The position numbers and the translations under genes were made by a program. A DNA stretch of 63,630 nt, filler included. It is 11 parts of 11 records of this genome, joined end to end, with 100 filler letters (N's around TTAATTAATTAA, not from the genome) between each part and the next. Parts side by side here need not be neighbours in the genome. Positions count along the whole stretch, not along the records: positions 48,435 to 55,891 come from SRR7504441_12573; 10 more parts are not named here. The stretch is one strand, 5' to 3'. The notes under the pieces are model-generated. The model did no database searches, had not been told where the DNA came from, and was given only the letters and a program-made list of their open reading frames with translations. Positions 4,750 through 60,613 of the stretch are shown here, piece by piece. Numbering within the stretch: the stretch's first letter is position 1; each line of letters starts with the position of its first letter.

Positions 4750-4849
4750 NNNNNNNNNNNNNNNNNNNNNNNNNNNNNNNNNNNNNNNNNNNNTTAATTA
4801 ATTAANNNNNNNNNNNNNNNNNNNNNNNNNNNNNNNNNNNNNNNNNNNN
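4750..4849. other. Artificial contig spacer (N44-TTAATTAATTAA-N44). The same spacer occurs at 11804, 23760, 27467, 34903, 40041, 44318, 48335, 55892 and 60514.
   Basis: Identical 100-nt linker with stops in all six frames, repeated 10 times. Confidence 0.98.
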
Positions 4850-5149: not shown

Positions 5150-5240
5150 CTCACGAGCTCACTCGCTCACTTTTTATTTTTTCGGCGATGGATTACGAAG
5201 CTTGAGCCGGCGTGGCTCACACGGGCGGCTTATTGGGCGG

Positions 5241-7843
5241 ATGGCGCAGACCGACGCGCTGTTTGCGGCGAGCTCGCGGGTGGAGTACACCCAGTGCCTC
5301 GTGCAGAACCTGATCCAGCACGCCAGCGCACTGGCCGACGCCACCGCGGACGCTGGTGGGCAGCCCCGGCGATCCACAGCCCGAGCCTCGGTGGGCAGAT
5401 GCGGTGATCGCCCGGTTGCCCCGGTCGCCAGCTCCGCGGCGGTGCGTCTGCAGGGCAGCATGCGGGCCGGGCTGACCGGTGCTTGCGCGGGCAGGTCGGC
5501 TGGTCAGCCCGACAGCGCCGCCACCATCGTTCGGGCGCTGCGGTCTGCTGGCACGCAGCACGCTTCGCTGCAGCAGCAGCAGCTTGCGGCCCGGCGGAGC
5601 CAGCTGGGAGAGCGCGCCAGTGCGGCTAGCCGTGCGGTCCTGGCTGAGCTGGGCTGGCAGACCGGATGGAGACTGCGTTGCTGCACGCGGCGGAGCAGCA
5701 GGCCACTCTGGACAAGCAGATGTTCGAGGCCCGCACGGCGCTAGCCGAGCAGGTCAGCCGCGGGCCAGGGCGCGGGGCATGTCCGGTAGGTGCAATTCGG
5801 GCGTGTGGCCGAGATCGGGCTGGGGAGAGCGTTGGAACAGGCCGGACCAGCTGAGGCGGCGAGGGCGGCGCCAGTCGTGAGTGCCCTGCGCGAGCTGTGC
5901 AGCGCTGCGGCGGAGGTGGTCACGGCACAGGCCGCGGTGGCCGCCGAGGAGATCGCTGAGCTGCTGGGGCGAGTGGACGGGGCCGCGGGGTTGGAGTTTG
6001 ATGTGTTAGATCGGAACAGCGACGGTGTGATTGACAGGAGCGAGTGGGAGCTCCATCAGGGCGAGCAGCAGATCGGGCAAGTCCATGGCCAGTTGCGGGA
6101 CACCCGGCTGCAGGCGCCGGCCTGGGTGGGCCGTTTGAGCGGCCGGGGCAGCTGGCAGAGGCGCGTTCTCAGCTGCTGACCCTTGAGGGAGAGCTGGCGG
6201 CTGAGCGGTCGGTGTGCGAGGTGGCGCCTTGAGCCGGGCAGCCGGGCAGCTGGCGGGGCCAGGCGGCGATTGATAGCCAGAAGCTGCAACTGAGTCAGAT
6301 GCTAGCTGAGAGCACCGAGCCTAACCCTGCAATGCACGCTAGGCCAAGCGAGCTGGTAAACAGTGTCGTGGCGGAGGCCTCGTTGATGCGATCTGCTGTC
6401 GACGCCGCAGAGGCCGACAAGGCCGCGGCCCTTGCCGACACGTCAATTCTCAAGACCCGACTAGACACGGCAGCGGCCGAGAGGCATGCAGCGGCTGCTG
6501 AGCTCTCGATGATGAGAAGCATGCTCGAGGCAGTAGAGGCCGAGAAAGCTGCGGCCGTTGCTGAGAATGCATCGCTCAAATCAAGACTTAAGACTGAAGC
6601 AGCCGAGAGGGAGGCCGCAGTTGAAGCCTGGTCGAACTTGAAGCAAGACTACAGGCGGACGCAAGAGCATAACGAGCAGCAGGCCGCCGAGCTGACTAGT
6701 GCCAAGCTGCATGCGCTGGATCTGCAGCAACAGCTGGACGAGTCACGGCGCCAGCTAGCCTGCGAGGCGCGGCTCACCCGGGACCGGGCATGATGGATGG
6801 CAGGTGGAGGCTGTGAATGAGAGCGCCAACGTACAGGCAAGACAGGCGAGCAGCACAGCTTCGGAGCTGTGCAGCCGGCTCGAGCAGAGCAGCGACAATC
6901 TGCGCAGCGCGGAGCAGCAGGCTACGCAAGCGCAGGCGAGGGCAGCTGGGCTAGAGAGGCAGCTGCGCGAATCGAATGCTGCGGTGGCGAGCCTGACTGG
7001 GCACCTGAATCTGGCGCGCGAGGAGGCGCGGCAGATGGCAGGCCGGCTGCAAGCTGAACAAGACAAGTTTGGCACACCCCGCGGGTGCCTCCTGGGCTGG
7101 CCACGGGGCTGAGCCGACGGCAGGGGGCTCTCGCCGCGGTCGCAGGGTAGTTCTGTGCTCGAGCTGCAGCGAGCACTAGAGCGGGCGGCTCAGTTTCTTC
7201 AGCAGGTGGGTGACCAGAAGCTGGAGGAGTGCGAGCTAGAACAGCTCACGCTCAGCGAGGCGCCCGAGCTAGCGCATGTGGCACTCTCGCAACTGAGCCA
7301 GGGCGAGAGGGGGCTCGTGCTGGCACTCCAGGTGCGATGGCCACGGGCTGGTCCTCTGAGCTGTGTCTGCAGCGATCCGAGCGGCAGCGGGCCCAGGCGG
7401 ACGCGCACTTGGCCCAGTCGAATCAGGAGCTGAGGGATTGGCAAGAGGCGGCCGCTTCAGGCTCGAGACTGTTTGGCGGTGGGAATACAGGCGAACTAGG
7501 GGTGCAGGATAGCCATCGAATGGAGCTTGAGAAGATGGAGAGCAAGCTGGTGGCTGTACAGAAGCAGCTCCGACTGTTGCGGCCAGCTTCGCCGGTGCCG
7601 GGGAAAGCTCAGCTGGATTCGAGCCCGGTGCTGTCCTCGGGAGCGCCGCGGGTGGTCGGCCAACGGAACATGTTGCCACGGCTTGATCAAGTCAAAGCTC
7701 GAGCCCGCAGCCAAACTTGGAGTCAACACCCGCCGAACGCAGAGCACCATCAGCTGAAGGTCAAGTTGGGAGATGCGAGAGACAGGCTGGTGCACGCTAA
7801 GTCGGAGTTCAAGGCGCAGTTAGAGCAAACCAAATTCACGTGA
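5241..7843 (+). CDS. Coiled-coil protein with one EF-hand; many small introns
   Basis: A/E/Q/L-rich exons joined by about 40-nt introns (e.g. GC-AG 6114-6151); EF-hand loop DRNSDGVIDRSE. Confidence 0.65.
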
Positions 7844-8075
7844 TCCGGACACGCTAAAATGATTTGATTTAAAAAATGTTCGCCATGTTGTAACGTGCGG
7901 CGATTTTGTGTACCACATTATGCAATAGATGACTATTGTCGCTGGTCACGGCGCATCACGGTCTACATGTAATCACGGACAAACATAACATGGCCATGGG
8001 CCGTTGGTAGGCCGTTGGCCACCTTGTGTGCAAGGTAACGGCAACCCGGTGCATCGCCCAGCCCAGTCAGACAAG

Positions 8076-11803: not shown

Positions 11804-11903
11804 NNNNNNNNNNNNNNNNNNNNNNNNNNNNNNNNNNNNNNNNNNNNTTAATTAATTAANNNNNNNNNNNNNNNNNNNNNNNNNNNNNNNNNNNNNNNNN
11901 NNN

Positions 11904-23759: not shown

Positions 23760-23859
23760 NNNNNNNNNNNNNNNNNNNNNNNNNNNNNNNNNNNNNNNNN
23801 NNNTTAATTAATTAANNNNNNNNNNNNNNNNNNNNNNNNNNNNNNNNNNNNNNNNNNNN

Positions 23860-26800
23860 CAGCCAGCCAGCGAACGACGGATTGACCACGCACGTGCTAG
23901 TGGCTGTGGCGGCGTGCATCTACACCCTGGCGGCCACACAAGGGGTGTTCCTTCAGAGCAGCACGGCGTTTTCGGAAGGACTTGCTGCAAAGGGTGGCCT
24001 GACAGCTGTTGATGGCATCAACGTCGTTGAGGTACCGGTGACTCAGAAATCAGGGGACACGACAGTAGACAGCGGCCTCGTCACCACCGTCGCCTGCTCT
24101 GTTATTTGCACTGTACTGCTTGTCCTGGTCGTGGCTGGAGCTGTACATCTGCTCTGCAAGGAGGAGAAGGGCGAGGAGGAGAAGGTGGGGCCCAGACAAC
24201 TCCCCCAGGTGCGGCTTGATGACGATCTTGTGTCCTTGGTGGACATGTCCCAGGCCAATTGCAGCTGTGCTGGCAGTAGCTCAGCCAAACAAGTATGTGC
24301 TGGAAGGCCCCTGCGGTGTGTGCCGGCAAGCACTGCGATGATGATGTTTTCCACGCTGCTGATCGTCAATGCAGCTGCCGCATCTCCAAATCTACCTGTT
24401 CAACGCCATATCGGTCGCTGGAGCGCGCCGCCAGCTCTTGTGCCGACAACAGGTCTTTTCGATTCACCTATCATAGGGAACGGTGACGTGGGAATGACGT
24501 TTGGCGGCCCGCCGAACCACACCACGTTTTGGATTGCTTCAAACTCGTTCTGGTCGGCAAATCAGAAAGTGGACGAGCGACCTAATAATAGGGACTGGGG
24601 TGTGCCTCATACACAACTTCGTATTGGCGATGTGCAGCTCATTGTGCCCTCGTTGATAGGTGCCGAATACAGTGCCTCTCAGGACCTGTACCGCGCAACG
24701 ATTAACGCCACATACACCTCAGCAACGTGCCGGCTACGACACAGCAGCATTGTAACCCGCAATCACATGCTCCAAACACAGCTGGAGGTCTCGGGGACAG
24801 CTTGTGGGAATGCGACCGTCCAACTGATGGCTGGTCGTGGGTATCCTCAGTCCTTTGGCCCGACCACTGCTGGCGTGAAGGGCGACAGACTATACATCAC
24901 GCGAGAGTCGGTCAGCACAAGGCACAACACCATTACAGCCGCTCCGTGTTTCAATGGAGGGCAGCAGATCAACTCTCAGCGTTGGAAAAACCAAAGCACG
25001 GTGCTCACCCTCGCCGATGGTCGGTGCATCTTCTCTGTCTCTGTCGATGGTCGACCGAAATTGAGTATTGGGGCCTGTGCAAGTGGTGATGCCTGGGCTC
25101 TTGTGCCTATGGAGCCATCTGGTGGACCTGGATTTGTGCTGAAGCATCAGTCGTCATCAGGTAGATGCGCAACGCTTGATGCCAATAATGAGTTTCTGGT
25201 AGAGGTCGAGTGTGCAACAGCCACTGCACTGTGGCTTTATGACCATAGCTCAGGCCATGTATATGTACAGAATTTGGAGTATGGATGGGGAAAGGGGAGG
25301 TGCCTGACTGCGGTGGAGCCCAATCCGTTGGTGGTTGCAGCGATCGCCCTCCAGATGCTGGACATTCATGGTCTGCCTTTGGAATTGCAGGGGCAGAGTG
25401 ACCATGTGCAGCACAGCTCCTTCAATTTAAATTTGGACGCGCTCGGTGGCACTGCTACCATCATGGCTGCAGTGTTGACTAAAGGCGATTGCACGGGTTG
25501 TGACCCCAACGTGACCAATATGTTGGATTCTGCGTTTGTCTTACTGGACCAGCATCAAGGTAGCGGCTCGACCGCTCTCACAGAGCCACATGCGATGTGG
25601 TGGGAGGAATACTGGCAAGCTGGTGCCAAACTGGACCTCGGATCAGACTGGGAGCAACTGGAAGGTTTCTACTACGGAATGCATTACCAAATTGGCAGTG
25701 CATCCAGACCGAATCGATTCGCACCTGGATTATGGGGGCCATGGCTGACTGCCGAGAGTTCTGAGTGGGCTGGCGACTACACATTAAATTACAACTTCGA
25801 GGCGAACTTCTACGGGGTCTTCTCTGACAATAGACCTGAGTTGGCCGAGCCCTATTTCAGAACTATCCTCAACCACGTCGATCTCGGACGATGGCGTGCC
25901 TCAATGCCAAGGTGGGGCGGAGGCGCGATCTTATCGACGCCCGGTTTCTGGGCACAGGATTTTAATCTAATGAGTGCGGTCTCAACAGATGGCTCAGGCT
26001 TTGTTGGCGCTGGTTATGGTGGCATTGAGCTTCCAGTGCACTTGTCTCCCTGGAAACATTTCTACTTTGCGAGTGACTACGGGCAGAAGAGCATAGGTGC
26101 TTTCTCAACAAAGCCCTTTATGGACTACTACGATTACACAGGAAACAAGACCTTTCTGAAGGAGGTTTTGTACCCTCTGGTTCTCTTGAATTCTGAATTC
26201 TACAGCTCGTATATGATCAAAATTAACAGCAAATACAACGTCATGCACTCATGCGCGATGGAGTGTTGTTCGGCCCAGGGAAATCTCACAGAGAACGACA
26301 TCCGGGTGTCCAATAACCCACCATTTGATCTTGCGTTTGTGAAGCGGACCTTCCGGGAGCTACTTTCCTATTCGGAGATTCTGGATACAAATGCTGATAA
26401 GCGACCGCAATGGCGTCACATCCTTGATAACTTGGCAGATTATCCACTCACCAAAGACGAGGAAGGACACTCTGTGTATGCACAGGCGACTTTGAACACA
26501 GGACCAACCTCCACTGTTACAGACGGATTCCCAAATGCCTCAAAGTGCGTTTGGTTGCAGGGGCGTAAGGATACATCAGAATGTGGCAACGCTCGTTATC
26601 CTATCGCTTACTTTAATGCTATGCATCCAGGCGAGGACATCGACCTTGCCAGCGACTCTACTGCACTGCGAATCGCACGTCGGACCACCGCTGTAGTGAA
26701 TGGGATCAATGACTATTCTCCAACGAACGGCCTATGTATGGCCTGGCCTGCGTCTGCGAGGGTGGTCAGTAAGACAGAAGACCTCCTCCAGCACTTTGAC

Positions 26801-27235
26801 TTGGCTCTGAATCATACTATCATGCCAAATTTCATGCCTTTCATCATGAACCGCCCTACTGGCGGTCCAGGCGCCAGCATGGAGAACTCTGGTGCCACAG
26901 TTGCTGTGAATGATCTCATGGCCTCTGTGCATGGCCATGGGGCGAATGCTTCCCTCATCATCTTCCCAGGGGGTTGGCCTGCAGGGAAGCTGGTTAGCTT
27001 CCGTGACGTGCGTGTGCGTGGCGCCTTCACTGTGTCAGCCACAGCACGCGGTACTGGCCATGGAGTGACCTTGATTGGGCCGGCTGTGATCACATCGTTG
27101 GTTGGAAACCCATTGGCACTATCTTGGCCTGCAACTCCGACTGTGGAAAAGGGAGGTGTGCCTGTAGATGTAACGCAGTACGGTGATACATTCCATTTCC
27201 AGACCACAATGGGGAGCACTTACACGGTACAGTGA
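23860..27235 (+). CDS. GH95-like glycoside hydrolase (alpha-L-fucosidase-like) with a ricin-B-like insertion; true start may be 24338
   Basis: PIIGNGDVG; W..YW; APGLWGPW; WAGDYTLNYNFEANFYG; FRDVRVRGAFTVSA C-terminus; Cys/Trp lectin-like segment (SQRW, GRC, CLTA); single 1117-codon ORF. Confidence 0.75.
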
Positions 27236-27566
27236 GTTATGAGGGGCAATGTTATCACCGAGCGAGCGAAGCGAGTGAGAGTAGCCGCGTTTAAGCAAAA
27301 AATAAAAAAAAATAAAAAAATAAAAAAACCCGCTAGAGCCAACCTTGCACCAAAGTCCGCGAGCATGGAGAACCCTTGTGCCACTGTTGCTGTTGTGCGG
27401 TTGCTCCGGGAAGATCTTGTTCAGCCGGATTACAGCCGGATGCGGATGGAGCCTACATGTAACTGCNNNNNNNNNNNNNNNNNNNNNNNNNNNNNNNNNN
27501 NNNNNNNNNNTTAATTAATTAANNNNNNNNNNNNNNNNNNNNNNNNNNNNNNNNNNNNNNNNNNNN

Positions 27567-34902: not shown

Positions 34903-35249
34903 NNNNNNNNNNNNNNNNNNNNNNNNNNNNNNNNNNNNNNNNNNNNTTAATTAATTAANNNNNNNNNNNNNNNNNNNNNNNNNNNNNNNNNNNNNNNNNN
35001 NNTACTGACATCTTTGCGTGGAAACTTGGTTTCGGTTCGGGACCCCGAGCGTCCTGTGATCCAGCCCGTATAACCACCGCTCAGGGTCACATCGAGGCGT
35101 AATCGAGTCGCCCTTGATTTTCAGGTCGCACGCAGGTCGGCGCCGTGTATCATTATCATACTGCCGAGGTGCGCATTACTGTGGACCGAATTTAATCGGG
35201 CCCGGGGTTCTTAGAGATAAATTAATTAAGCGCCCACCCAGATCTATCA

Positions 35250-40040: not shown

Positions 40041-40198
40041 NNNNNNNNNNNNNNNNNNNNNNNNNNNNNNNNNNNNNNNNNNNNTTAATTAATTAANNNN
40101 NNNNNNNNNNNNNNNNNNNNNNNNNNNNNNNNNNNNNNNNAAGGGGCGCTCAACAAGCTAGTAATTGATAGACTAACACATGTGTTAATCAAGCTTTG

Positions 40199-44290: not shown

Positions 44291-44417
44291 GGGGGGGGGG
44301 GGGGGGGGGGGGGGGGGNNNNNNNNNNNNNNNNNNNNNNNNNNNNNNNNNNNNNNNNNNNNTTAATTAATTAANNNNNNNNNNNNNNNNNNNNNNNNNNN
44401 NNNNNNNNNNNNNNNNN

Positions 44418-48334: not shown

Positions 48335-48434
48335 NNNNNNNNNNNNNNNNNNNNNNNNNNNNNNNNNNNNNNNNNNNNTTAATTAATTAANNNNNNNNNN
48401 NNNNNNNNNNNNNNNNNNNNNNNNNNNNNNNNNN

Positions 48435-49411: not shown

Positions 49412-50923
49412 CTAGATTGGATATTCAAACTTTGCCAGATCGCACGGCCCCGGCGCAAACCCTGCAAACTCAAGCCCGGTAGGCCGCCCAAAGCCGCTGA
49501 GCACTGTAAAGCGCAGCCCCGAGGCTTGAACAGTGGAGTCTAGCAAGTCAATCCTGTTGGCACCGACCGTTGTGCCGGAAGAGACTTTGACCCAGTTGCC
49601 AGAGACGTTGGCCTCCACCCGGTACTCCGCGATCATCTGGCCGCAGCTCTGATCCTCGCGCATTCGGACTCGGTCGATTGGACTGGCCGAAAACTCGAGC
49701 TCAACAGAGAGCTCGCCAGGCTTGATTGAGCCTGAGCCTACAGCTGTGTCGTAGCACGAGCGGATCCAGTCGCCGAACTGGGCGTACGCCATCGCGTGCT
49801 TTGGGTCGACCCCGCCGGTCCGGTCGATTGCGAAGTCGATTTCCAGGTGGCCGTTGGCCCCGATGGAGTTGTGGTACATCTCCACCAGCGTGCTCAGCGG
49901 ATTGAGCGAGTCTCCCGGGGTGTAGAACCAGTGATCGCCGGCCTGCAAAGTAACGTCCACGCCAGACGGGTACCAGCTCGCCCCAGTAGCATTGGGCGGC
50001 GCCCCAGCCCCAGAGCCCGACGGGCACCAACCACAGGCGGCCGTGCTCCACACAGCGCCTCCCGGCCCGCGCTCCGGCAATCCGCTCTCGGTGCCACACC
50101 AACGGACCGGGCTGTCGCTCACCCCACCGCCGTTGAAAGCCACCGCGTCCCGGGCGTTGGTCCGTCGAACTAGCGCCCCGACCTTGTCACACATGGCGCC
50201 GCAGCCGCCATCGAGCCATATCTCAGTCAGGTTGCCGAAGTCGGTCCAGAGCTCCGTAACCTGCGCCAGTGCCAGCGCCTCGAACTCGGCCTGGCTCACC
50301 GGGGCCTGGCCGGGCAGCGCACTGGCTGGGCCGTTGGCCTTGTGCCCGGCCACGTTGAGGTAGAAGTTATTGGTTAAGGAGTAGTAGAAGCCGTGACCGA
50401 TCTCGGCGGCGGTGGTGGCGGCCACAAACTGCTCGAGCACGTTCAAATGGGCCGGCACGTGGTAACGGTACGGGGACCCGTCGGGCAGGGTTGTTTTGGT
50501 CTGCCAGGCCAGGAAACCGCAGCCGTGCTTGGCCGTGAGCACCGCCGAGCTTGCCCCGAGGGCCTTGAACGACTGGACCCAGCTGGAGACGTTGAGGTTG
50601 GTCGGATTGAACGAGCCCACGTCGCTGCTGTTGCACCGGTCGCTGTTCGGGTCACAGCCGTTCCAGTTGTGCTTGTCGCACCCGGGGTCGCCGTCGTGGA
50701 AGAAGGTGGCCATCCCGAAGTGAATGAGCGCCGAGATCGAGCCCTGGTAGGCCAGCTGCTGCCGGGTCGGCACCGGGAGCGGCCCCGCGTGCGGCAGGAG
50801 CGTAAAACCGCCGGCGGCAGCAGTTGCACTGGCACTGCCAACATGGGCAGCCACCAAGAGCGCCACGACTCCCAGCTGTCCTCGCAACCGAGTACTCCAG
50901 CTCGGCCTCGCCGGCCTCGCCAT
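49412..50923 (-). CDS. GH29 alpha-L-fucosidase (secreted, intronless) with a C-terminal F5/8-like beta domain
   Basis: ALIHFGMATF; FNPTNLN..W; VLTAKHGCGFLAW; EIWLDG; WFY; YHNSIGANG. Confidence 0.9.
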   Translation of the reverse strand: MARPARPSWSTRLRGQLGVVALLVAAHVGSASATAAAGGFTLLPHAGPLPVPTRQQLAYQGSISALIHFGMATFFHDGDPGCDKHNWNGCDPNSDRCNSSDVGSFNPTNLNVSSWVQSFKALGASSAVLTAKHGCGFLAWQTKTTLPDGSPYRYHVPAHLNVLEQFVAATTAAEIGHGFYYSLTNNFYLNVAGHKANGPASALPGQAPVSQAEFEALALAQVTELWTDFGNLTEIWLDGGCGAMCDKVGALVRRTNARDAVAFNGGGVSDSPVRWCGTESGLPERGPGGAVWSTAACGWCPSGSGAGAPPNATGASWYPSGVDVTLQAGDHWFYTPGDSLNPLSTLVEMYHNSIGANGHLEIDFAIDRTGGVDPKHAMAYAQFGDWIRSCYDTAVGSGSIKPGELSVELEFSASPIDRVRMREDQSCGQMIAEYRVEANVSGNWVKVSSGTTVGANRIDLLDSTVQASGLRFTVLSGFGRPTGLEFAGFAPGPCDLAKFEYPI

Positions 50924-50975
50924 TGGCTGTCCGTTGGCTGTCCGTTGACAACATACAGTAGGCTCGCACGCAACA

Positions 50976-51469
50976 ATGTGAGGCGACAGGTCGGGGCGCG
51001 GCTCACTCGGTGGGCAGGTCGGCAGATCTGGTGTGGCAATTGGTGCGTAACAACTCGGCGTTCATCCACAAGCGGCGTTGCGGGAGCAACCTCCAGCTGT
51101 TGAACTCGGAGCCGGGCAACCTGACCAACCTCAACCGGTACAAGGACAGCGGCCTCGCCAACAACACCGCCGTCGGCTTGACCGCCGATGCCAAGCAGGG
51201 CGTGGTGCTGAGCCTGAAGAACGCCAAGCGGATCAGGCAGATCAAGAAGAACGCCCCCGGTGTCAAGATGTCCGGCTCGTTCCGCAAGGTCGCCAAGGCC
51301 ATCAAGAAGGCCACAAAGGACTCCTTCTACCGTAGCGACCTCTCCAAGCCGGCCCTCGCTCGCTGGTGCGCGGGCGGTGGCTTGGGCAGGTGGCTGAGTG
51401 GCTGGTGACAGGTACAAGATCTGGAAGAGCCAGGAGGCCTACCACAAGAAGCCCAAGTCCGACGAATAA
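50976..51469 (+). CDS. RPL28: 60S ribosomal protein eL28; introns 50978-51017 (inside the ATG) and 51366-51411
   Basis: MSADLVWQLVRNNSAF...EPGNLTNLNRYKDSGLAN...YRSDL..PALAR. Confidence 0.93.
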
Positions 51470-51504
51470 GCTCGCAATCAGCCTTCGCCACCAGACAAGC
51501 CATT

Positions 51505-51865
51505 AAAAAAGACATAGTTGTTGAACTCAGCGTTGGGCGGCCGCGCGCGTTGGGGCAGGGGCCTGGGGTATCGCGATCGACGGGCAGCAGCGATTCTGGC
51601 GGCGCGCTGTCCACTCCCTGCCAGGAGTGCACGGGGCAGCAGGCCAATCAGGGGCAGAGCACACCCAGTCGCGTGCTTGGGTCGCTGCGTACAAGTTCGG
51701 GTGGGCGCAACGCGGGGGGGGTCCCGCTCAGTCTCAGTGTGCTATCCGCCTTGGCTGTGAAGAGAGCTCGTTCAGCCGGTCCTCGTACGCCAGGTTAGGG
51801 TTAGGGTTACTAATAGGATCGTGAGGGTTTTATGCGATGCACGCTGGTGCATGATTACGAGTCCG
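51505..51865 (-). ncRNA. Putative telomerase RNA (Pol III type-3 promoter layout); 5' end approximate
   Basis: Template-like UAACCCUAACCCUAACC (51809-51793); ACCCAT USE-like motif upstream (51894-51889); T6 at 51510-51505; GC-rich structured body with no credible ORF; complementary 5' and 3' ends. Confidence 0.55.
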
Positions 51866-51886
51866 AATGAATTGCCATCCTAGGCC

Positions 51887-51895
51887 AAATGGGTT
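51887..51895 (-). promoter_or_regulatory. USE-like element AACCCATTT upstream of the putative telomerase RNA
   Basis: ACCCAT core resembles the ciliate/algal snRNA and TR upstream sequence element; position fits. Confidence 0.35.
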
Positions 51896-52213
51896 CCACA
51901 TGCAACCAAATCGAACGTAAAATGCCGTGAGGCATGATTATTCGGATTGTTTGAATCATTGGCATAAATTGCGTATCTCTTATCGAATGGCGTATTGCAT
52001 TCGACACAACTTAAATGCATGCAATCAAGATATATGTGCATGTAATCGATTGCTATATTGATCAGCAACGTATCATGCAATACCTCTCGAACAAGATTTG
52101 ATTCGTTTGATTGTTTGTCTTGGCATCGGTGCTTCACATAAGATAAAGCCAACCGATTCTTCCAACAAAGGCCCTGATCATGGCCGGTCCTTGATCCCGC
52201 ACCCGACACGCCG

Positions 52214-52810
52214 TCAGCAGACAGGTTGGCCTAGAGGCTGCTCAGCTCTCAAGCGGACTCTTGGCTGGAACTGTCCAACGTGGCTGCCATCGAGGCTCAA
52301 TTTGCGCCAACTGGCGTGGATCCTCGGGACCCCGTCCTGTCGGACTCCGCCGCACTCGCACCGGATCCGTACCCGTCCGTCAGAACAGGCCGACGCGGAC
52401 ACTCGCCGGATGCCGCAATAGCTGCAGCAATACTCTTGCGGGGTCCCGAGTGCCTTGTGTGCCTTGCTCCGGCGGTACTGATGCTCCACCGGCGGGGCCT
52501 GGTGTTCCGCCATCGGCTGGTCGATCGGCCGCTTTCCGGAGGGCCCGTGCCGGGCTGCCGCGGTCGGCCAGTTGGCGGCCGCCTTTGCCTCGGCCGGCAG
52601 GTCCAGTCTGGGCGAAGCTCGCGGGGCGTACCGAATGGGCAGCTCGAGCAGGCAAGGGTCGGCGATCGGCAAGATCTTGGTCGCCCGTATCACCGGGGCG
52701 GCCGGCGGGGAGCCCATTTCGTCTTGGAGCAAGACGAACGCGGGCTCGAGAGTCGGAGTGGGCGGCAGCGAGCCGCCGGCCACCCTGCAGAGTATGGCGA
52801 GGGCGGACAT
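52214..52810 (-). CDS. Pro-rich protein with a C-terminal putative zinc-binding domain
   Basis: YCCSYCG...SDGRVRIRCECGG..DG.PRIHASW; start inferred. Confidence 0.55.
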   Translation of the reverse strand: MSALAILCRVAGGSLPPTPTLEPAFVLLQDEMGSPPAAPVIRATKILPIADPCLLELPIRYAPRASPRLDLPAEAKAAANWPTAAARHGPSGKRPIDQPMAEHQAPPVEHQYRRSKAHKALGTPQEYCCSYCGIRRVSASACSDGRVRIRCECGGVRQDGVPRIHASWRKLSLDGSHVGQFQPRVRLRAEQPLGQPVC

Positions 52811-52962
52811 GGACAGGCCAAACAGACCCGGCGCTCGACAAGCGTTGGGCTCAGTGCCGCCACCGCGGCGACACCCGCGCCTGTGGGTTAAGACGCATCC
52901 GCTGCGATCCCATCTTTCGGGCGTGGGTTGACCTGTTCTCGAATAGTGAATTTTTTTTTTCC

Positions 52963-53781
52963 ATGCCGGCCCAGTGCCGTGGTCTGACGAGCACCGCGGT
53001 GCGCTGCTGCCGGCAGTGGTCGGGCAAGGAGGAGTGGAAGGCGGGCGCTCTCTGCCTGTGCTGGCCTGAGCGTTGGGCCAGAATTGGATCGCCTGGGACA
53101 CCAAGTTCCAATCGTCCAGCGACAAACTCAATCGGAAGCGACACTACTTCTACCGCGTGGACGCCAAGGCACTGAACGCCCGCGCCCCAGCTGAGGGCAT
53201 GGGCAGGGGCGGCTGCTCCGGCTGGAGTTGGACCAGCCCGACAAGACCTTCGGAGAGATCAGGCCAAACGGTGCTGACTGGCGGCTGGTTGACTATTTCT
53301 TCTCGGTGAGCCTGCGCGGCCGGCGGGCAGCACCGTGGGGTCAGCACCTGGGGGCCAACCGCAGCGGGCTGTATGGGCCTGAGTTCGGTTGGCTCTCCAC
53401 CCGCATGCACGAGAAATACTTTACCAAATGCGACGTGGCGCCGGTTGTGTTCACAGACCTACGCGACGGTACGGACAACGCTCCCTCCCCGGGCCAGCCC
53501 CGGCAGGCGTGCTCAGGTACGCGGCCACACTGAGCGAGCCGTTCGAGCCGAGCCAGCTGCGGCTGTCGCGGTCGGGCTATTTGCTCCATCCAGTGCAGAC
53601 TAAGGCGGATCAGCTAATGGCGCTGGTGAAGAGCTGGCTGAGGCTGGTGGGAGCTCTGGGACAGGTAGACTCGCAGGTGGCGCAAGGGCTGCTCGAGCGA
53701 GTTGTGCACGACGGGGGCGATTATGTGCTGGAATGGGAGGGAGAGCGTGTGAGAATACCAGTGCTTGCGGATGACAGCTGA
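52963..53781 (+). CDS. UPF0598/C8orf82-like (DUF4505) protein, multi-intron
   Basis: RHYFYRVD..G; DYFF; NRSGLY..EF; C..APVVFT.L; LRYA..L..PFEP..L; GYLLHP; GC-AG introns 53041-53081 and 53169-53206. Confidence 0.75.
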
Positions 53782-55891: not shown

Positions 55892-55991
55892 NNNNNNNNN
55901 NNNNNNNNNNNNNNNNNNNNNNNNNNNNNNNNNNNTTAATTAATTAANNNNNNNNNNNNNNNNNNNNNNNNNNNNNNNNNNNNNNNNNNNN

Positions 55992-58116: not shown

Positions 58117-59424
58117 TTACAATTCTTCCTCAGCATTGATGCGGAGCCGGATCAGCAAGCTTTCGTGAGGCCCGAGAATCGCTGGGGTGATATTTCCCAC
58201 AAACCCCGGGCCGTCGGTATGGTTCCACACAAACCGAGCTGACACTCTGGCGGTGCCCCACTCAGGCCGACCAAGAGCGGCGCCAACCACCGCGAGATCC
58301 ACACCCACGCATGCACAACCGCTCGGACTCTTGTCACAACTGATGCAGCCGCCCCAGCTGCCACGGTTGAAGAGCAGCACTGCCGCGTCGCCGTTGGCGA
58401 GCGGCCTCGCCCAGACTTCGCTCCACTGCAACCCACCGGGGTTGGAGTCGGAGACCTTGACAGCTGGCTTGCCCAGCGCATCTTGGTCGATTGCGATCAC
58501 CTCCCTGTTAGTGTACAGCCCGAGCGCCCGTGAGTCGTTGGCCAGCGAGTCCAGGTCATCTCCTATCGAGAGCGGAGCAGCAAACATCGTCCAGAAGTTG
58601 AACATGGTTCGCCGCTCCTCGAAACTCATCCGGCCCTTGACCATAAACAACTCGTCCAGATCGTTCCAACCTCCCGGACCAGCCGCCGGGAGCGCCACTA
58701 CCGCGTTGTCCACCGAGCGCATGACACTCTCCCAGCAAGGCTGCTGATCCGCTGAAATCCTCCACGAATTCGCAATCGCAGCCGCGTACGTCCACGGCGC
58801 GTCGGCTCCCCACGAGCACATGCTGAACAGCACTTTGTGCCCGGCGCGCACTTGCTGCTGCACGCATCGGCTCATCTCGGAGTAGCACGCCTGGCCGGTA
58901 TCGTTTCGAGACCCGCAGTTGCCCGGGCGGGGCCCGCAAAAGTCTTGTTTGATGTAGGTGACTCCCCACGCCGCGAACGTGCTGGCGTCCTCGCAATAGT
59001 GCCCATAGCTCCCGGGAAACCTGGCACACGTGTTCAGCCCGAGGTCTGTGTATATCCCGAGCTGCAGCCCACGGCTGGCAGCGTACTGGGCGATCTCGGC
59101 GAGACCACCCGACGGGAATTTGGTTCTGTTGGCCATCAGTTTGCCACGCATCGGCTGCCCGGGCGAGACGGGGGCGGTGTCCTCGGACCGGTGCGTCTGG
59201 TTGGACCAGCAGTCGTCGATCTGGAGGATGTTGTACCCAGCGGCCACCAGGCCCAGGTGGACCAGCAGGTCGGCGGTCCGTTTCAGGCTGTCTTCGGCGA
59301 CCTCGCAGCCGTACGAGCCCCAGCTCGACCACGTCATTGGCGGCCGCAGCGCCAGCCCGTTGTCGATCGCCACGACGGCCAGAGCCAGCCCCAGCAGCCA
59401 CAGCAGCTTCAAACGTAGAGCCAT
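58117..59424 (-). CDS. GH27 alpha-galactosidase (secreted, intronless)
   Basis: IDNGLALRPPMTWSSW; IDDCW; LGIYTD.G..TC; YIKQDFC; WRISAD; WNDLD; IDQDALG. Confidence 0.92.
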   Translation of the reverse strand: MALRLKLLWLLGLALAVVAIDNGLALRPPMTWSSWGSYGCEVAEDSLKRTADLLVHLGLVAAGYNILQIDDCWSNQTHRSEDTAPVSPGQPMRGKLMANRTKFPSGGLAEIAQYAASRGLQLGIYTDLGLNTCARFPGSYGHYCEDASTFAAWGVTYIKQDFCGPRPGNCGSRNDTGQACYSEMSRCVQQQVRAGHKVLFSMCSWGADAPWTYAAAIANSWRISADQQPCWESVMRSVDNAVVALPAAGPGGWNDLDELFMVKGRMSFEERRTMFNFWTMFAAPLSIGDDLDSLANDSRALGLYTNREVIAIDQDALGKPAVKVSDSNPGGLQWSEVWARPLANGDAAVLLFNRGSWGGCISCDKSPSGCACVGVDLAVVGAALGRPEWGTARVSARFVWNHTDGPGFVGNITPAILGPHESLLIRLRINAEEEL

Positions 59425-59678
59425 CGGTCGGAGATGGCCTGCAAACTTGCAGCCGTTGGGACCTGCCGCCGTGTCCGAGGCTTCTAAGCGAGGCTTGCCG
59501 CACGTGCCTGGTGAGTGCCCGTCTCTGGCCCGCCGGGTGCTAGCCGCCAATTTCTCCTGCCCCGGCTGTGCCGCGCACTCGACCCTCTCTGATGATGTTC
59601 CCCCCATCCCGCCACTCGCTTCCACATGTCGGCGTCGTGCGCCTGGGCCTGACGCACGCATGCTGGTGGCAGGCAGCC

Positions 59679-60513: not shown

Positions 60514-60613
60514 NNNNNNNNNNNNNNNNNNNNNNNNNNNNNNNNNNNNNNNNNNNNTTAATTAATTAANNNNNNNNNNNNNNNNNNNNNNNNNNNNNNN
60601 NNNNNNNNNNNNN

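Follow-up and report, generated by a model that had tools for sequence, protein, structure and literature searches.

We propose that the minus strand between positions 51895 and 51505 of the window (the whole 63,630-nt stretch of DNA that was analysed) carries a candidate telomerase RNA gene of the plant/ciliate type, a reasonable, unverified reading of the sequence to which we assign a probability of roughly 40% and which we regard as a lead rather than a result. Four elements follow one another on that strand: a USE-like motif, AACCCATTT (51895-51887), which by its sequence and its likeness to published USEs is a candidate type-3 (snRNA-type) promoter element; a telomere C-strand tract, UAACCCUAACCCUAACC (51809-51793), the candidate template and alignment region; a GC-rich non-coding body (51511-51792); and a T6 run (51510-51505), a candidate Pol III terminator. 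The motif, the tract and the T-run, as well as the pairings and hairpins discussed below, all lie on the minus strand where a sequence-only reading of this DNA had placed them.

In the mechanism proposed here, AACCCATTT would recruit the snRNA-type (SNAPc) promoter machinery. Plant USEs stand 55-75 nt from the start site, and because this spacing was applied to the motif, minus-strand transcription is predicted to start near 51840-51820. In this RNA, UAACCCUAACCCUAACC would lie about 15-30 nt from the 5' end and serve TERT as template and alignment region. A GC-rich scaffold of about 280 nt would follow, and the RNA would end in the U-tract at 51510-51505, its final ~20 nt being antisense to the 3'-terminal part of the eL28 mRNA; the telomeres of the host would be TTAGGG. 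The implied length of roughly 310-335 nt falls within the range of Pol III telomerase RNAs, about 150-350 nt. The analysis shows the tract, the motif, the T-run and a non-coding body; the transcription of the candidate, the polymerase, both ends and the fold of the RNA, and its use as a template are inferred.

The telomere-like tract and the USE-like motif

The tract is perfect over 17 nt, or 2.8 repeats, and is the longest perfect run in the window; it had been described as the only tandem TTAGGG run there, which holds, and it was the sole match when the whole window was searched for TTAGGGTTAGGG with at most one mismatch. In a shuffle control the 12-mer TTAGGGTTAGGG found at least one match in 8 of 100 shuffles. 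The 17-nt tract itself is not a product of chance, because the exact 17-mer is expected only about 1e-5 times by our own arithmetic. The template of a Pol III telomerase RNA is here taken to be complementary to the telomere repeat of its own host over at least one repeat plus 1 nt. Telomerase RNA templates span 1.2-2 repeats, and those of Viridiplantae and ciliates measure about 9-15 nt as against about 17 nt in the candidate; 17 nt and 2.8 repeats would be unusual in a template.

A tract that exceeds typical templates is typical of short interstitial repeats, and it would fit a neutral interstitial telomeric repeat in GC-rich intergenic DNA, produced for example by telomerase-mediated break repair or slippage, with ACCCAT and the T6 run present by coincidence; we consider this origin somewhat unlikely. 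What the locus shares with short interstitial telomeric sequences and plant-type telo-boxes is a small number of perfect repeats set in unique DNA between genes, close to a ribosomal protein gene. A repeat search found the candidate stretch to be single-copy within the window. Against a neutral repeat stands the scarcity of TTAGGG/CCCTAA hexamers elsewhere in the window (three outside the tract, on the plus strand), from which the genome seems not to be littered with such sequence. No telomere array was found at the contig ends among the contigs of the window.

The core of the USE-like motif, AACCCAT, sits about 78 nt upstream of the tract in the correct orientation. Counted on both strands, AACCCAT occurs three times in the window and ACCCAT 13 times; the chance of meeting ACCCAT is about 1% per 100-nt span of the window, and that of the broad form [AT]CCCA[CT] about 5%. 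The other two AACCCAT sites, at 27107 (+) and 40587 (-), are in sequence that looks coding, without an RNA gene downstream, and were rejected. Published USE consensuses, given in Table 1 of Fajkus et al. 2021 (PMC8287931), include AACCCRTAA for Blastocystis (telomere CCCTAA), ACCCAYAW for Micromonas, ACCCATAA for Auxenochlorella and CCCRTAA for Ostreococcus. The AACCCAT of the candidate agrees with the core of these consensuses, which belong to other lineages and may not be those of the host. Beyond the tract, we regard AACCCAT as the most interesting candidate feature, one that was selected post hoc, after the tract had been seen. A Pol III telomerase RNA with a type-3 promoter would share its USE, at a fixed distance, with the U6, U2, SRP and MRP promoters of its host; within the window Rfam matched no snRNA, SRP or MRP genes.

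An ACCCAT at most 100 nt upstream (~1%) together with a T run of at least six within ~300 nt, both oriented as in an RNA gene, is improbable beside a neutral interstitial repeat, although both were picked post hoc. Allowing for that choice, we estimate the probability of motif, T-run and orientation together, given an unrelated interstitial repeat, at about 0.1-1%. The prior is set by the genome-wide number of such tracts.

The sole TATA-like element between motif and tract is CATAAAA (51834-51828, minus strand), with its first base 52 nt past the USE-like motif and its last base 18 nt before the tract. It is misplaced as a TATA box, because the start site would fall inside the template; the sequence-only reading had already noted the absence of a clear TATA box, and with CATAAAA too close to the tract and no other element at a workable position we concur. 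The spacing of type-3 promoters, with a TATA box about 25-30 nt before the start, is thus not found at the locus. The rule is described as lineage-dependent (PMC8287931), so its failure weakens the assignment to this class without excluding it.

When sequences were scanned for the pattern AACCCAT, 60-90 nt, tract, seven loci were found in viral contigs and six in prokaryote genomes, most of them beside telomere-like arrays, and blastn detected no similarity between these 13 loci and the candidate beyond the tract. The occurrence of USE-plus-tract patterns elsewhere, without likeness to the locus, speaks for a neutral repeat. On the minus strand of locus L011 (about 7768-7862), in an AT-rich contig filed under a Gammaproteobacteria MAG, AACCCATAC is followed by a TATA-like run and then by a 22-nt CCCTAA-type tract. 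This arrangement, which does not resemble the candidate of the window, represents either a layout like that of a telomerase RNA or contamination by eukaryotic DNA. On a giant-virus MAG contig (L010), about 15 CCCTAA repeats form an internal array at 5190-5279.

The GC-rich body, its folding and its end

The body of the candidate RNA (51511-51792, minus strand) has a GC content of 0.69 and no codon periodicity. In the block 51526-51790 (69% GC) GC by codon position is flat, at 0.66/0.70/0.70, and GC3 of the neighbouring fucosidase and eL28 genes is 0.80-0.91; none of five ORFs across the block had a Pfam match at E<=1. With neither codon periodicity nor a Pfam match, the earlier description of about 280 nt of GC-rich sequence without a credible ORF is borne out. 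Blocks of this kind are not rare: 22 GC-rich non-periodic blocks were counted in the window, and the commonness of GC-rich non-coding sequence is consistent with a neutral interstitial repeat. Searches with Rfam (release 15) yielded no match at the gathering score over the window and, at E<=10, no telomerase RNA family in 51300-52200, where a miRNA model of no relevance here (E 0.78; plus strand, eL28 intron region) was the only match. A tRNA scan found no tRNA.

Several pairings had been pointed out in the sequence-only reading, and all of them exist: GGACUC(G) at 51864-51858 with (U)GAGUUC at 51529-51523, CAGCGU at 51846-51841 with ACGCUG at 51533-51528, and GGCUG at 51777-51773 with CAGCC at 51757-51753, which enclose a 15-nt loop, AACGAGCUCUCUUCA; both hairpins, at 51677-51658 and at 51629-51612, can also be seen. 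What does not survive is their significance, since stem counts are at the level of shuffled sequence. Stems of at least 6 bp number 73 as against 65 +/- 10 in shuffles, and 19 of 100 shuffles have at least as many; the longest stem comprises 8 Watson-Crick pairs (8.3 +/- 1.1 in shuffles); and the minimum free energy is -119 kcal/mol as against -115 +/- 5.4 (z -0.72), with 21 of 100 shuffles folding at least as well. The listed pairings are real yet carry no weight.

A single-sequence pseudoknot search, for which the layout was that of Viridiplantae telomerase RNAs (short GC-rich P2, P3 of at least 6 bp, bounded loops; PMC8287931), gave 35 pseudoknot-like architectures as against 25 +/- 19 in shuffles, and at least one in each of 100 shuffles. 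None of the 35 has a U-rich J2/3 and none uses the GGCUG/CAGCC hairpin, which had been called pseudoknot-compatible and is at shuffle level as well. A USE promoter and helices closing the two ends of the RNA had also been claimed jointly. The elements of both are there, but the two claims cannot both hold, because the closing helices (51864-51841) lie upstream of the predicted start, outside the RNA or at its edge. That structure, homology and expression signals do not set the stretch apart from background is a further point in favour of a neutral interstitial repeat.

The T6 run (51510-51505) lies about 283 nt downstream of the tract and is the first run of at least four T's after the motif; T runs of at least six number 13 in the window, both strands counted. 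An oligo-T end with no internal T run of at least four is thus present, though the run falls within the eL28 3' UTR. On the plus strand it is the A6 of ATTAAAAAAG, lying 15-20 nt before the eL28 mRNA end and transcribed within the eL28 mRNA, and ATTAAA at 51502-51507 overlaps it, which makes good the earlier caveat that the A6 run overlaps a possible RPL28 poly(A) signal. Because of this position within the eL28 3' UTR and the overlap with ATTAAA, T6 is not independent evidence of a terminator, and that the 3' UTR accounts for it is again consistent with a neutral repeat.

Neighbouring genes, RNA contigs and source lineage

The gene convergent with the candidate is eL28 (RPL28; 50974-51525, plus strand), identified by Pfam (PF01778, E 1e-25). 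Its start codon lies near 50974-50976, its stop codon at 51466-51468 and its mRNA end near 51525. RNA contigs delimit exons at 51018-51364 and 51411-51525, separated by a very short, GC-rich intron of 46 nt (51365-51410) whose GT..AG joint was seen in three of four runs; from RNA contigs with a loose end at 51018 and from the genomic sequence we infer a first intron at about 50977-51017, directly after the start codon, which would be very short (41 nt), GC-rich and GT..AG. The eL28 mRNA contigs of two runs stop at 51525, giving a 3' UTR of about 57 nt.

The RNA runs are marine metatranscriptomes, searched as contigs. Parts of a 1401-nt stretch occur in 20 of the 24 runs listed, and none of the runs holds half of its words; four runs were aligned, X1 and X2 (poly(A)), X5 ('other') and X24 (random-primed). 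No contig in these four runs covers 51526-52151, a result that is uninformative on a small Pol III RNA since the data are mostly poly(A)-selected and rare RNAs are dropped. X24 gave only look-alikes of 90-95% from other organisms.

Upstream of the candidate, on the same strand, lies a Cys-rich ORF, here called gene X (52214-53143, minus strand), in which GC is highest at the third codon position and for which no Pfam family was matched. Its RNA contigs, from two runs, cover 52152-52463 at a low depth of 3.3-3.8. Compared with the window, they show 2-5 base differences and a deletion of 7 nt at 52200, just beyond the stop codon, which suggests strain variation in the 3' UTR. The AT-rich spacer between gene X and the candidate (51896-52151; 34-42% GC in a fine-scale GC profile) is probably the 3' UTR/terminator region of gene X, and the other AT-rich blocks of the window are likewise found at gene 3' ends. 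The candidate is thus placed between two convergent genes, eL28 and gene X. In the next convergent pair on the contig, with stops at 53781 and 54008, the genes are separated by an AT-rich spacer alone, and for this reason the GC-rich block of about 265 nt appears as extra sequence.

The position of gene X bears on whether the tract might be part of another transcript, such as a long 3' UTR or readthrough product of gene X, an unannotated Pol II non-coding RNA or an intron. In such a transcript the tract would be non-templating, or it would belong to a telomerase RNA processed, as some fungal ones are, out of a Pol II precursor. We hold this to be improbable. Gene X lies directly upstream on the same strand, its RNA contigs stop at 52152-52205 without a defined end, and there is a precedent in the basidiomycete telomerase RNA described as cut from an mRNA (PMC9564094); a 3' UTR of about 700 nt would be needed, however, as compared with about 57 nt for eL28 on the same contig. 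Nor does an intron fit well: the hypothetical 29-nt GT..AG intron at 51810-51782 has no RNA joint, no exon context and no flanking ORF, and it is shorter than the eL28 introns of 41 and 46 nt.

Another possibility is that the tract acts at the DNA level, as a protein-binding double TTAGGG 'telobox' for a Myb/TRF-like factor that would serve as a roadblock or insulator between eL28 and gene X or as a regulatory element tied to a ribosomal protein gene. In plants and some fungi, boxes of telomere repeats are known as regulators close to ribosomal protein genes, and in yeasts readthrough transcription can be stopped by Myb-type factors. The tract lies where two convergent genes face each other with their 3' ends, and the contig is very compact; its fucosidase-eL28 intergenic spacer is shorter than 100 bp. 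We nevertheless judge such a role very improbable. The tract follows the eL28 mRNA end at a distance of about 270 nt and is in no promoter position. The window, with its roughly two dozen genes, contains no second tandem site and few single hexamers, which argues against a general device here, and the upstream ACCCAT motif is left unexplained. A telo-box usually consists of one unit and is located in a promoter or 5' UTR; the candidate tract, by contrast, has 2.8 units, is downstream of a gene and is accompanied by a USE-like motif and a T-run, both oriented as in an RNA gene.

The candidate locus and eL28 are on the contig at 48435-55891. The window joins 11 short contigs by means of ten identical spacers, each of the form N44-TTAATTAATTAA-N44 (4750-4849, 11804-11903, 23760-23859, 27467-27566, 34903-35002, 40041-40140, 44318-44417, 48335-48434, 55892-55991 and 60514-60613); because these joins are artificial, adjacency across a spacer is meaningless. 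Three glycoside hydrolases are spread over different contigs of the chain: an alpha-L-fucosidase (49412-50923, minus strand), recognised from Atlas clusters and protein-search matches, a GH95-type domain (24245-27235, plus strand) and an alpha-galactosidase (58117-59661, minus strand), the last two identified by Pfam. Together they fit a heterotroph digesting fucose-rich polysaccharides. An A-rich microsatellite, AAAAATAAAAAAAATAAAAAAATAAAAAAA, is found at 27290-27330, shortly 3' of the stop of the GH95-like gene.

In a protein search with eL28, 15 of 22 candidates had E<=1e-10 and the best was 91% identical; Telonema subtile, at 66% identity, was the sole named match. The best-scoring eL28 chains in the PDB are presumably from plant ribosomes. 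For the neighbouring fucosidase the top match was a EukProt entry (72%) and the next named one Salpingoeca helianthica (61%), and the ESM Atlas indicated only a generic fucosidase family. All eL28-bearing runs are marine metatranscriptomes. The source is an uncultured marine protist, and as a weak lead from these sequence matches it may be either a relative of Telonemia or another poorly sampled heterotroph on the TSAR side (the acronym is spelled out in PMC12133305 and PMC7658794). An eL28 metagenome scan returned 284 pattern stretches, three of which encode a relative. The closest (L001, 77% identical in amino acids) has lower GC and a different, coding-looking downstream neighbour, and both the tract CCCTAACCC and synteny with the locus of the window are absent from it; the eL28 proteins of the other two (L002 and L003) are only 39% identical.

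Relation to known telomerase RNAs

With the Pol III telomerase RNAs of Viridiplantae and ciliates the candidate shares its size and the order of a USE-like motif, a 5' template, a GC-rich scaffold and a T-run. It differs from them in having no correctly placed TATA box, and the P2/P3 pseudoknot with a U-rich J2/3, the P1.1 boundary helix and P1c are not above chance in it; the Rfam models for ciliate and other telomerase RNAs do not match it. A second close parallel is given by the Blastocystis candidates (Opalinata, Stramenopiles), which come from a TSAR-side protist, were found in silico from a promoter motif and a template, and have a USE core AACCC(R)T with a CCCTAA-type template downstream and an expected T-rich end (PMC8287931). 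In that source, each of the 10 subtype genomes of Blastocystis is described as having a homologue in which USE, template and pseudoknot are conserved (PMC8287931); for the present candidate, the metagenome, viral and prokaryote scans yielded no homologue. The motif of the window ends in TTT and the Blastocystis USE in TAA, as judged by the published consensus rather than by the gene sequences.

In the passages of PMC8287931 that bear on distribution, convincing candidates are reported only from Viridiplantae, heterotrich ciliates and Blastocystis, and no supported candidate is given for red algae or Plasmodiophorida. A literature search, judged by title, found among the matches listed no publication on a telomerase RNA of Telonemia or haptophytes. 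To our knowledge, telomerase RNAs diverge fast and are hence uncharted for most protist lineages. We tentatively suggest, as a specific form of the telomerase RNA reading, that the locus may encode the telomerase RNA of a deep lineage on the TSAR side, one that is uncultured and may be Telonemia. This RNA would be USE-driven, TATA-less or oddly spaced, with a template region of 17 nt and a U-tract that doubles as the poly(A) signal region of eL28.

If true, this specific form of the reading would add a further major branch of Diaphoretickes to those with a telomerase RNA of the plant/ciliate type and would give a first handle on telomerase in the lineage concerned. If verified, the candidate would predict the telomere repeat of the host and would provide a test of whether a Pol III telomerase RNA with a type-3 promoter is ancestral to Diaphoretickes.
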